64,000 nt of DNA, from NCBI GenBank assembly GCA_965223325.1, contig CBDCWI010000002.1:3744001-3808000 (forward strand). The letters are read 5' to 3'. Shown piece after piece: positions 61,195 through 64,000 of this stretch. A program made the translations under genes and the position numbers. The stretch comes from Candidatus Multivoradales bacterium. Lineage in GTDB: Bacteria > Acidobacteriota > Thermoanaerobaculia > Multivoradales > Multivoraceae. Positions within the stretch are counted from its first letter, which is position 1. Each line of letters opens with the position of its first letter. Below the pieces are notes generated by a model that saw only the letters and a list, made by a program, of their open reading frames with translations, made no database searches and was not told the DNA's origin.

Positions 61195-61671
61195 ATGTTC
61201 AAGTTCTTCGGCATTGTCGTAGCAATGGGTCTCTCGACCCTTTTCTTCGGCATGGCCGGGTGCACGGCCTGGGTCGCCACCGGCGGTGTCGCGACAGTCT
61301 CCGTCGACACGCCCGAGGCGAACATCTACCTCCCCGTTCCCACCCGCCTGGTCGACCTTGGTCTCGACGCAGCGTTCATCGGAGCTGCCGATGAGCGCTT
61401 GGCTCTCCAGGCCGAAATGCAGCGTGAGCTCGGTGACCTCGACATCGAAGTTGGCGAGTTCGTCCGCGAGGTCTTAGACGAAGTTTCCGACATGCCCAAC
61501 GGCGCGCTCGTCGAAGTCCACGGGCCAGACGGTGAGGATGTGTGGATCGGCAAGAGCCGCGGTCGCTTTCTCGTCAAAGTCGATGCTCCGGACGCGCGGG
61601 TTCGCGTTTCCATACCCGCCCGTTCCGCCAAGCGCATCGGCAACCGGGCGCTTACGGTCGCGGGTCTATAG
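61195..61671 (+). CDS. Membrane-anchored hypothetical protein (possible lipoprotein)
   Basis: RBS GGGAG; N-terminal hydrophobic segment with MAGC; modules resembling those of the upstream protein. Confidence 0.7.
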   Translation: MFKFFGIVVAMGLSTLFFGMAGCTAWVATGGVATVSVDTPEANIYLPVPTRLVDLGLDAAFIGAADERLALQAEMQRELGDLDIEVGEFVREVLDEVSDMPNGALVEVHGPDGEDVWIGKSRGRFLVKVDAPDARVRVSIPARSAKRIGNRALTVAGL

Positions 61672-61683
61672 CGGCCGTAGCTG

Positions 61684-62307
61684 CTAGCCCTCGGTGGTCC
61701 GGGCGCGTTCAAGAAGCGCTCGCCACCCGTCGGCTTGTTCTCTGAGCGTCGCATCCGGTCCGACCGCGCGCAGATACCAGGGCCCACCTGCGCCCTCGAT
61801 CACCGCACCGTAGAGCGTGTAGCCCGGAAGGTCCTCAGTCGGAAACGAGCCGATGCCGCTCTTCTTGAGCGTGCCCGAAGTCGCCACCGTGTGGACCTCA
61901 ATGCCCTGGCCACCGAAACGATCGCGCGCCGGTTCACTACCCCCGGCGATCTGCCCGACCCAGCGCCCCAAGTTGGCGTCGACTCCCCCGCCGCCGCCAA
62001 CGCCGAAGTGAAAGAGCGCCACCCGCCCAGGCCCACCGGAGCCAGGAATGCTCAGCTGGGCGAGCCGCATGGCGGAGTCGGGCTCGACCGAAGACCAGCC
62101 CTCCGGGAGCTCGAGCCTGAGACCGGCAGCTTCGATGAATCGGCCCTCAGAATCAGCCGCCGCTTCAGGAGGCGGAGTTGCAGCCGCCACCGGCGGATTG
62201 GTTACAGCGTCGGACGACGGTTCAGCAACCGGCTCGAGGTCTGAGCAGCCGAAGCTGGCGACCAGGAGCGGCGCGATGAGGAAGGTCTGGATCGTGGGGG
62301 CTTTCAT
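61684..62307 (-). CDS. Putative lipoprotein
   Basis: Lipobox-like SFGC; Pro/Ala linker; LPEGW...MRLAQ...GGGVDANLGRWVGQ motif. Confidence 0.72.
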   Translation of the reverse strand: MKAPTIQTFLIAPLLVASFGCSDLEPVAEPSSDAVTNPPVAAATPPPEAAADSEGRFIEAAGLRLELPEGWSSVEPDSAMRLAQLSIPGSGGPGRVALFHFGVGGGGGVDANLGRWVGQIAGGSEPARDRFGGQGIEVHTVATSGTLKKSGIGSFPTEDLPGYTLYGAVIEGAGGPWYLRAVGPDATLREQADGWRALLERARTTEG

Positions 62308-62466
62308 TTCGGGGCATGTTCCCACACTGTCAGCGCCACGGTTGGCTTCGCGACCGTTCGCTGCGGGCAGGTTGAGCCAGCCCGTATTTTGAAGACACCG
62401 AGAAAGGCCTGAAAACGGCGAGTGTTTGTTCGATGCCGAGACGACGAAGGAAGTTCGACCGGGGAG

Positions 62467-62967
62467 TACCTGAGCGTTACCGCCGCAGGTGGTAGGTCGA
62501 CGACCGGTAGTTCAAGCTCACCCGCATCCGGGTTTCCGAAGAAGTGTTGGCGGCGGGTAGTCCGGCCGCAGGCCGAATGGCGCAAGCGCATGGGAATCGT
62601 TACCTGAGCGTTACCGCCGCAGGCGGTACGGCGACGACCGTTAGTTCAAGGTCATCCGCATCCGGGTTTCCGAAGAAGTGTAGGCGGCGGGTAGTCCGGC
62701 CGCAGGCCGAATGGCGGAAGCGCATGGGAATCGTTACCTGAGCGTTACCGCCGCAGGCGGTACGGCGACGACCGTTAGTTCAAGGTCATCCGCATCCGGG
62801 TTTCCGAAGAAGTGTAGGCGGCGGGTAGTCCGGCCGAAGGCCGAATGGCGGAAGCGCATGGGAATCGTTACCTGAGCGTCACCGCCGCAGGCGGTAAGGC
62901 GACGACCGGATTCCCAAGCGCATCCGCATCCGGCCGAAGGCCGAATGGCGGAAGCGCATGGGAATCG
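62467..62967. repeat. 134-bp tandem array; every unit carries the 3' 22 nt of tRNA-Sec
   Basis: Units start at 62467, 62601, 62735, 62869 (last unit 34 bp shorter); TGGCGGAAGCGCATGGGAATCG at 62578 (1 mismatch), 62712, 62846 and 62946 (the tRNA itself). Confidence 0.97.
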
Positions 62968-63045
62968 AACCCACCCACGACAAAGCATCCCCTGCCGCAC
63001 TACGGTTTTGAAGACCGCGGGAGGCACCAGCCCCCGAGCGCTTCC
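62946..63045 (-). tRNA. selC: tRNA-Sec (UCA)
   Basis: 8-bp acceptor GGAAGCGC/GCGCTTCC, 6-bp D stem with TGGT loop, anticodon loop CTTCAAA, long variable arm, 5-bp T stem, GCCA end. Confidence 0.96.
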
Positions 63046-63230
63046 TTACAGTCGAACCCGAAACGGTACCACCAGGACGGCCGATCGGTCTGACGCCGCG
63101 ACTGAAAAGAAAAACCGCCAGCTTGCGTCTCCTACCTGTGGAGGAGGAGTTGGACACCCGTTGCCACCACCTTCGTGGAGCACTGCGACGCGGTGTCGCG
63201 CCCTCCACTCACCGAAAAGGGAGACAGCAG

Positions 63231-64000
63231 ATGAAAACACAGGGCCGAGTGCCTTCGCCCTTCCTCGAGAAGATGAGGCGTGAGATCCGCGTGCGCCAGC
63301 TCAGCTACGCCACCGAGAAGACGTACCTAACCTGGACGAAGCGATACATCCTCTACCACCAGAAGCGCCATCCCGGGGAAATGGGCGCCAACGAAGTCGC
63401 CGAGTTCCTGACCCATCTCGCCGCTGACCGGAGGGTCGCAAAGGCCACACAGAACCAGGCACTCAACGCGCTCGTCTTCCTCTACCGCTACGTTGTCAAG
63501 GCCCCGCTCGCCAATATCGATGCGCTGAGGTCTCGCAAGCCTCGAAACCTGCCAGTCGTTCTGACTCGCGGCGAAGTGGCGCTGGTCCTGGCGGGAATGC
63601 AGGGCGCACCCAAGCTGGTAGCCAGCTTGCTGTACGGGAGCGGCCTCCGTCTTACCGAGGCGCTACGACTGCGCATCAAGGACATCGATTCCGAGCGCCG
63701 CATCGTCACCGTACGCCGAGGCAAGGGCGACACCGACCGCGTTACCCTGCTTCCCGAGAGCCTCCTTCCCGCCCTCCAGGAGCAGATCCAACGCAGTCGA
63801 GACGAGTACAGAAACGCCAGCAACGGCGACGGTGTCTCGCTGCCCGCCGCTCTGGCCGACAAGTATCCAAACGCAGCCAAGGAGTGGCCCTGGTACTGGC
63901 TCTTCCCTTCAACCAAACTCGCCCGAGACCCCCGGAGCGGGCGAACCCTTCGGCACCACCTGAGCACCAGCGCCATCCAGAAGGCCGTTCGACGAGCGGT
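63231..64000 (+). CDS. intI: Integron integrase (IntI-type tyrosine recombinase), 5' part; absent from the ORF track because it runs off the window
   Basis: Translated from ATG 63231: IRVRQLSYATEKTY..W, HPGEMG..EV..FLTHLA, ATQNQALNALVFLY, LPVVLT, LLYGSGLR, GKG, and the integron-specific insert VSLPAALADKYPNAAKEWPWYWLFPS...RHH. Confidence 0.93.
   Translation, partial: MKTQGRVPSPFLEKMRREIRVRQLSYATEKTYLTWTKRYILYHQKRHPGEMGANEVAEFLTHLAADRRVAKATQNQALNALVFLYRYVVKAPLANIDALRSRKPRNLPVVLTRGEVALVLAGMQGAPKLVASLLYGSGLRLTEALRLRIKDIDSERRIVTVRRGKGDTDRVTLLPESLLPALQEQIQRSRDEYRNASNGDGVSLPAALADKYPNAAKEWPWYWLFPSTKLARDPRSGRTLRHHLSTSAIQKAVRRA

Follow-up and report, generated by a model that had tools for sequence, protein, structure and literature searches.

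The window analysed here, a stretch of 64,000 nt from the genome of Candidatus Multivoradales bacterium (contig CBDCWI010000002.1), ends in an arrangement that raises a question concerning the origin of repeated tRNA sequences. Behind the tRNA-Sec gene selC lies a tandem array of short units carrying copies of the tRNA 3' end, and close to the other end of selC a gene for an integron integrase (intI) begins on the opposite strand. Was the array built by this integrase, as the initial annotation of the locus proposed, or does it belong to the tRNA gene? The array is unrelated to the adjacent integron; in our view, it is probably a conserved module of the tRNA trailer that was amplified in place to four tandem units. 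The earlier interpretation is partly supported: the fallback that it offered, an array of CCA-ended trailer units comparable to that at Escherichia coli tyrT, is the one that the evidence favours.

The polarised array itself is real, as judged by ARAGORN, Rfam, Tandem Repeats Finder (TRF) and counts of the tRNA tail. The match of selC to Rfam family RF01852 scored 71.9 bits against a gathering score of 47, and an Rfam scan of 62000-63300 at E<=1 gave tRNA-Sec alone besides chance-level matches to isrG and IRES_Bip. TRF reported an array with a 134-bp period at 62467-62908 (3.3 copies, 96% matches, score 807). Four copies of the tRNA's final 22 nt, with one mismatch or none, are present in the window (at 62946, 62846, 62712 and 62578), where 100 shuffles gave an expectation of 0, and no copy was found elsewhere in the 6.69-Mb genome. 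The 134-nt unit likewise gave no match in the genome outside the selC locus, and modules related to it are confined to tRNA trailers, unlike repetitive extragenic palindromes (REP) and bacterial interspersed mosaic elements (BIME); the array is thus not a sample of a genome-wide REP-like repeat. The number of units had been given correctly, but a tRNA tail does not bound every one of them, because the last unit, of 111 nt, lacks the 22-nt copy. Units 2 and 3 differ at one position, unit 4 differs from the neighbouring unit 3 at eight positions, one of which is within the tRNA fragment, and the alignment of the proximal 100-nt unit shows one 34-nt gap beside TCCGG/CCGGA and 11 more differences. 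These comparisons agree with the earlier description of the units, including the 34 bp missing at TCCGG from the proximal one.

We also considered whether the array could be a single trailer copy inflated to an array by the assembly. This is very improbable. Short-read metagenome contigs do break inside the array, but the units are mutually different (1, 8 and 11 differences and the 34-nt indel), the genome is in two contigs (C1 and C2 below), and short-read unitigs match the variant-specific junctions at 62549-62613, 62716-62836 and 62850-62958 with 0 differences. The unitigs came from four metagenome (DNA) runs of one study, which may include the sample behind the genome assembly, so that they are possibly not independent of it; no RNA run containing the locus was listed. 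Zero-difference unitigs over variant-specific junctions indicate that the array is not a collapsed single copy. A single unitig joint between 62733 and 62942 (depth 2, side 24) has too little support to count as a copy-number variant.

Read in the direction of the tRNA, the module consists of a GC-rich hairpin right after the CCA (hp1), an antisense copy of the tRNA 3' end (S'), a linker, a second hairpin (hp2) and a sense copy of the tRNA 3' end (S). S starts at T-loop C56 (CGATTCCC...), and S' covers the tRNA from T-loop C56 to the CCA. The canonical module of the family is about 100 nt long, and the proximal unit of the window has this canonical form with an intact S' (Table 1). Units 2, 3 and 4 contain a 34-nt insertion 3' of hp1 and a degenerate S', so that the three distal units look like drifting copies; in unit 4, hp1, the insertion, the degenerate S' and hp2 are all retained. 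Two other identities were tried for these sequences. A degenerate copy of the whole tRNA-Sec was rejected for the unit, since S' has ATGGG, the exact complement of the 3' strand, and not the GTGGG of the tRNA, and since the complement of CCA lies within S'. A retrovirus-like primer-binding site was considered for S', but no reverse transcriptase context was seen.

Table 1. Features of the selC array and of the neighbouring integron integrase gene, in window positions; R1 is a covariance model of the module.
Feature	Position	Strand	Basis or remark
selC (tRNA-Sec, anticodon TCA)	62946..63045	-	ARAGORN and Rfam RF01852
S0, last 22 nt of selC, T-loop C56 to CCA	62946-62967	-	
Proximal module, 100 nt	62846-62945	-	R1, 75 bits
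hp1 of the proximal module, immediately 3' of CCA	62929..62945	-	RNAfold minimum free energy structure
S' of the proximal module, antisense copy of the tRNA 3' end	62906..62928	-	17 of 19 aligned positions equal the reverse complement of S0
Linker and hp2 of the proximal module	62868..62905	-	hp2 covariation
S1, 22-nt sense copy identical to S0	62846..62867	-	closes the proximal module
Unit 2, 134 nt, exact terminal 22-nt S	62712..62845	-	R1, 34.5 bits
Unit 3, 134 nt, S copy with 1 mismatch to the tRNA tail	62578..62711	-	R1, 34.5 bits
Unit 4, 111 nt, distal, most diverged, without terminal S	62467..62577	-	R1, no match
intI, 5' part (integron integrase)	63233..64000	+	TIGR02249

The module is conserved as a structure. 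RNAalifold on a plain MAFFT alignment recovered six pairs of hp2, and a hand-set structure together with the covariance model R1, built from 14 modules, was then used. In the 14-module alignment, both sides have changed at all 11 pairs of hp2 (39 cells), and 76% of the hp2 cells are paired, compared with 34-44% when the partners are slid. The hp2 covariation score was reached by 0 of 500 shuffles. S' agrees with the reverse complement of the tRNA tail at 13-20 positions in all 14 trailers, and a variant of the tRNA-Sec in one relative, G010 (CCCATACGC), is mirrored in the S' of the same genome. S is reduced to its first 8-12 nt in five genomes (G005, G010, G012, G013 and G001). In addition, the tRNA-sense strand contains 64 G-U pairs against 34 on the antisense strand, as counted over 26 first units.

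For the module alone, the minimum free energy (MFE) structure predicted by RNAfold is, in most genomes, hp1 followed by a long stem of S' and S with hp2 at its tip. In the window, S' pairs with S1 in the MFE structure of the module alone and with S0 in that of the tRNA and trailer together. When the tRNA was folded with hp1 and S', S' paired with the tRNA's own 3' strand in 7/7 genomes, and in the fold of the full module from the window's genome the 5' strands of the tRNA pair with S1. These folds of tRNA and trailer represent thermodynamics only, as real tRNAs fold and are processed co-transcriptionally.

The trailer design is shared widely among relatives. Sixty of the 61 genomes searched, the window's own included, contain selC, and extra copies of the tRNA tail follow it at 14 of 39 relatives' loci. 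When the window's own genus is included, 10 of 13 genera have the hp1-S'-hp2-S layout downstream of selC (G001, G003, G005, G006, G007, G008, G009, G010, G012 and G013), and an eleventh genus (G002) has a degenerate copy. Tandem arrays occur behind selC in G013 (four units), G010 (two to three) and G006 (two), as well as in G003 and G012, each of which has at least four units split over contig ends. With strict filters, R1 matched 22 of the 151 genomes sampled from the order. The selC module is ancestral and independent of the integron.

Other arrangements were also seen at selC. A large genus (g11) has no S' module there; its selC trailers consist of one to three tandem partial tRNA-Sec copies of 77-86 nt (L023, L030, L031, L032, L033, L034, L036 and L028). 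Each g11 unit is an exact copy of the last 34-55 nt of the tRNA after a diverged piece resembling the anticodon loop, with no antisense arm, and the pattern is common to several species with varying copy number. On contig C18 of G008 (L056), a second selC without a module is directly followed by a selB-like elongation factor gene.

The module is not confined to selC. In the window's genome, eight distinct tRNA genes (Gly-tcc, Glu-ttc, Glu-ctc, Ser-gga, Ser-cga, Ser-tga, Ser-gct and Sec) have an antisense match with four mismatches or fewer per 18 positions, 14-25 nt past the CCA, while every other entry among the 53 ARAGORN calls had 6-9 mismatches in the same test. In relatives, genes for tRNA-Tyr, Glu, Gly, Ser, Lys and Ala and for the tmRNA are followed by a module whose arms fit the gene in front of it. 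Arrays were also observed at two of the eight genes: at least seven units form the trailer of tRNA-Glu-ctc (C2:3407416-3408200) and at least four that of tRNA-Ser-tga (C2:3642524-3643000). ARAGORN miscalls a 'tRNA-Arg' and a 'tmRNA' inside trailers of the Glu-ctc/Ser-tga type.

We then have to ask what the integrase contributes. An IntI-type gene does lie upstream of selC on the opposite strand: the full-length product has 327 aa, the gene ends 214 nt past the window, and the TIGR02249 match scores 422.9 bits against a cut-off of 265. Its distance from the 5' end of selC is 187 nt, and not the 185 bp given before. The array had been placed where the cassettes of a divergent integrase would be expected, but the actual cassettes are on the far side of intI. 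In the first 11 kb 3' of intI, 18 attC-type repeats with AAC...GTT boxes lie on the same strand, and a covariance model built from these 18 sites (R2) found 54 attC sites genome-wide, about 30 of which lie in succession at C2:3808962-3829664, without exception on the + strand. This run is downstream of intI, on the side opposite selC, which lies upstream of it. The orientation of the integron is atypical in that intI is transcribed toward its own cassettes, an arrangement that PMC3607928 describes for Treponema.

In the tRNA array (62300-63100), R2 gave no attC match at E<=1, and the palindrome of the selC module lacks AAC...GTT boxes. The array resembles integron cassette arrays in its adjacent intI and in its short repeated units with an imperfect palindrome, but it differs from them in attC boxes, in its side of intI and in co-occurrence with IntI. 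None of the relatives' 39 selC loci has an IntI nearby (1.5-2 kb per side examined), so that the suggested intI-selC synteny is absent from them. Integron integrases above the cut-off occur in 6 of 57 family genomes and modules in 17 of 57; among these 57, an IntI on the selC contig was never found outside the window's genome. No integron integrase above the cut-off was found in G006, G007, G009, G010, G012, G013 and G015, and relatives thus carry such arrays in integrase-free genomes, an outcome that the initial annotation had named as refuting its proposal. Among the 80 nearest public IntI loci, tRNA-Sec within 3 kb or less of IntI was found at none and other tRNAs at five; the nearest relatives of this IntI are spread over many phyla.

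The proposal of serial insertions of a very small non-coding circle by the neighbouring IntI, with the 3' end of selC serving in place of attI/attC, is left with hardly any probability. It draws on a genuine intI lying so near to selC and on the S'-hp2-S part being an imperfect palindrome of attC-like length. Against it stand the position of the real cassette array, the failure of the genome's own attC model to find a site among the units, the lack of pairing between selC and IntI seen from both genes, the arrays in genomes without IntI, and the modules at seven other tRNA genes far from intI. The integrase gene is a neighbour of the tRNA array and not part of it.

As for the integron, it is a complete chromosomal one at C2:3807231-3829664 (L009 7231-20000), corresponding to window positions 63233-64000 and onward. 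One cassette of about 450 nt is exactly duplicated 7 kb apart (L009 8511-8810 and 15571-15870). Extra attC clusters lie at C2:4160143-4170447, 4398805-4401570, 4484969-4487992 and 971039-982745 and at C1:2123306-2142671. No integron integrase is near these clusters, and the only IntI above the cut-off in the genome is the neighbour of selC.

If the array belongs to the tRNA gene, then a comparison with known tRNA trailers is required. To our knowledge, trailer repeats of this type were previously known from one E. coli operon, and their function is still not clear. These are the repeats of RtT RNA (rttR, RF00391) behind tyrT-tyrV, which, like the selC array, consist of tandem non-coding units behind a tRNA gene, with a copy of the tRNA 3' end including CCA at the unit end (except in unit 4 of the selC array). 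Behind E. coli tyrV, three copies of its last 19 nt follow with a spacing of 178 nt. The Rfam consensus of RtT also has, like the selC module, an outer helix formed by an antisense piece and a copy of the tRNA-Tyr 3' end around hairpins, and the layout of both can be explained without a recombinase. However, the antisense arm comprises 9 nt in RtT and the whole last 22 nt of the tRNA in the selC module, the unit length is 100-134 nt at selC and 178 nt in RtT, the selC unit has no open reading frame (ORF) of the Tpr-like kind found in RtT, and the module follows seven other tRNA genes in the window's genome besides tRNA-Sec. The RF00391 covariance model gave no match in 62000-63300 at E<=1, whereas four matches of 133-137 bits were obtained with E. 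coli K-12 as a positive control. Given the shared layout and the lack of a match, we regard the selC module as an RtT-like variant and not as a member of the family. RtT is processed from the tyrT transcript, according to a preprint that cites earlier work (bioRxiv 10.1101/2024.07.17.603846). No description of such tRNA trailer modules was found in the accessible parts of the literature searched, from which subscription papers were excluded.

How could a trailer module become an array? S reproduces the tRNA tail at a distance of about 100 nt, so that each module holds its own pair of 22-bp direct repeats, and slippage or unequal exchange between the S0/S repeats would add or remove whole units. 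This is the most likely origin of the array, and it would account for arrays that have apparently emerged on separate occasions, at selC in several genera and at other tRNA genes of the window's genome. A function can be suggested from the parallel with E. coli RtT: the module would be co-transcribed with the tRNA and fold as RNA. S' could then pair alternatively with the tRNA's own 3' strand or with an S copy, and the module may influence how the 3' end matures, or else pre-tRNA folding and yield. A putative RNA element of this kind, acting on the pre-tRNA 3' end, is favoured by the constant place and orientation of the module behind tRNA genes, by hairpins that covary, by an S' that has stayed complementary to the tRNA, by the excess of G-U pairs on the sense strand and by the precedent of RtT.

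Several observations weigh against amplification of a functional RNA element. Simple slippage predicts an S copy at the end of the array, which unit 4 lacks. The S'/S helix is 74% paired, but compensatory change was seen at 0 of its 14 pairs, a result to be anticipated where the tRNA sequence constrains S, and a tRNA variant of G003 was copied in S and is absent from S'. Compensatory changes in the hairpins can also result from palindrome correction at the DNA level without selection on RNA. The sense strand tends to fold better than the antisense strand, yet this trend is not significant (Wilcoxon p = 0.12-0.17), and in the tRNA-Ala array of G010 the antisense strand folds better. In 61600-63300, a promoter scan gave 0 promoter-like sites and a terminator scan gave two terminator-like sites, not above shuffles; neither of the two is a minus-strand site between selC and the gene that follows. 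Finally, recombination at module sites does occur, given that in G089, G161 and G010 modules flank gene islets (1-5 kb) next to partial tRNA copies that have been displaced.

This last point leads to a different explanation, in which the units are relics of site-specific recombination at the T loop, that is, miniature, cargo-less elements resembling cis-mobilizable elements (CIME) and accreted or amplified by a tyrosine integrase in trans. S would then correspond to the attR/attL identity block, and S' either to an inverted arm bound by the integrase or to a site that folds into a hairpin. We consider this explanation unlikely, though it accounts for several observations. Integrases that target tRNA genes have T-loop C56 as a canonical crossover sublocation, and S and S' both end exactly there; moreover, the order S-hp1-S'-body-S would be the expected footprint of integration at a folded single-strand hairpin site. 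The selC gene hosts islands in the order: in G053 an integrase-like ORF starts directly 3' of it and an 81-nt tRNA fragment lies 21 kb away, and in G060 tRNA fragments lie 30 kb from selC. In G089 and G161, modules and partial tRNA-Sec copies separate gene islets, and a 2.7-kb islet lies behind a tRNA-Ser of G010. The array also shares with att repeats and CIME the direct tRNA 3'-end repeats starting in the T loop (four tail copies), and in relatives gene islets lie between such repeats. However, neither cargo nor integrase lies between the repeats at selC, and units of 100-134 nt of hairpins carry nothing. As there are no further tail copies in the genome, none is left to mark a distant attR. 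Unlike att sites as usually described, the module has an antisense arm and covarying hairpins, and it is inherited vertically at the family level, being kept at the same tRNA in 10 genera while the hairpins diverged. An integrase was seen neither among the 13 ORFs tested from the islets of G089 nor in that of G010. Any island insertion at a tRNA gene displaces the old 3' part with its trailer, whatever the module does, so that the islets do not show modules to be mobile. The absence of S from unit 4 also argues against recombination relics.

About equally doubtful is the explanation that the module is a functionless by-product, in which a terminator-like hairpin was extended to a palindrome by template switching, which created S', and was then duplicated by slippage. 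Selection would in that case not be the cause of its conservation, which would stem from gene conversion involving the tRNA and from the palindrome correcting itself. The loss of S' from the distal units of both the selC array and the tRNA-Glu-ctc array is in line with this, as are a copy number free to vary between genera, the S'/S helix without compensatory change and the weak strand test. Nevertheless, a by-product is difficult to reconcile with hairpin pairing kept across genera despite full sequence replacement, with a design kept at eight tRNA genes of one genome and in 22 of 151 order genomes, and with the G-U excess on the tRNA-sense strand.

In connection with the islets, we observed that in G089 (L187) and G161 (L188/L189) they alternate with partial tRNA-Sec copies and modules and that their genes lie on the tRNA strand. 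The genes encode a protein kinase, an AbiEii-like toxin, a beta-propeller protein and an outer-membrane barrel.

More speculatively, the modules and E. coli RtT might together represent a widespread, undescribed class of riboregulators built into tRNA genes, an extension of the preferred reading that we put forward tentatively and with low confidence. In such a system, S' could use the free GCCA tail as a toehold to invade the tRNA and sequester the 3' strand of the acceptor and T arms in the precursor, and the S copies could be decoys releasing this strand. The number and integrity of the units might then set the output of mature tRNA, in this case tRNA-Sec and hence selenoprotein capacity. 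The repeats could also serve gene islets as landing or recombination sites, as a side effect.

The comparison does away with a tempting but mistaken link between the integron integrase and the tRNA-end array. Trailer repeats of the RtT type are a general, conserved feature of a whole bacterial family and order; they occur at many tRNA genes, and the sequence of their arms varies with that of the tRNA concerned. Their covarying hairpins, their antisense arm complementary to the tRNA and their natural variation in copy number offer a comparative handle on the role of tRNA trailers. Annotators should also note that integrase activity cannot be deduced from tRNA 3'-end repeats alone.

Beyond the distal end of the array, a non-coding stretch of 91 nt adjoins it on the minus strand at 62372-62461. 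This stretch has no Rfam match, and a paralogue with 84% identity to it lies on the second contig, at C1:492507-492597. The stretch may represent a leader or a small RNA of the downstream gene at 61684-62325.

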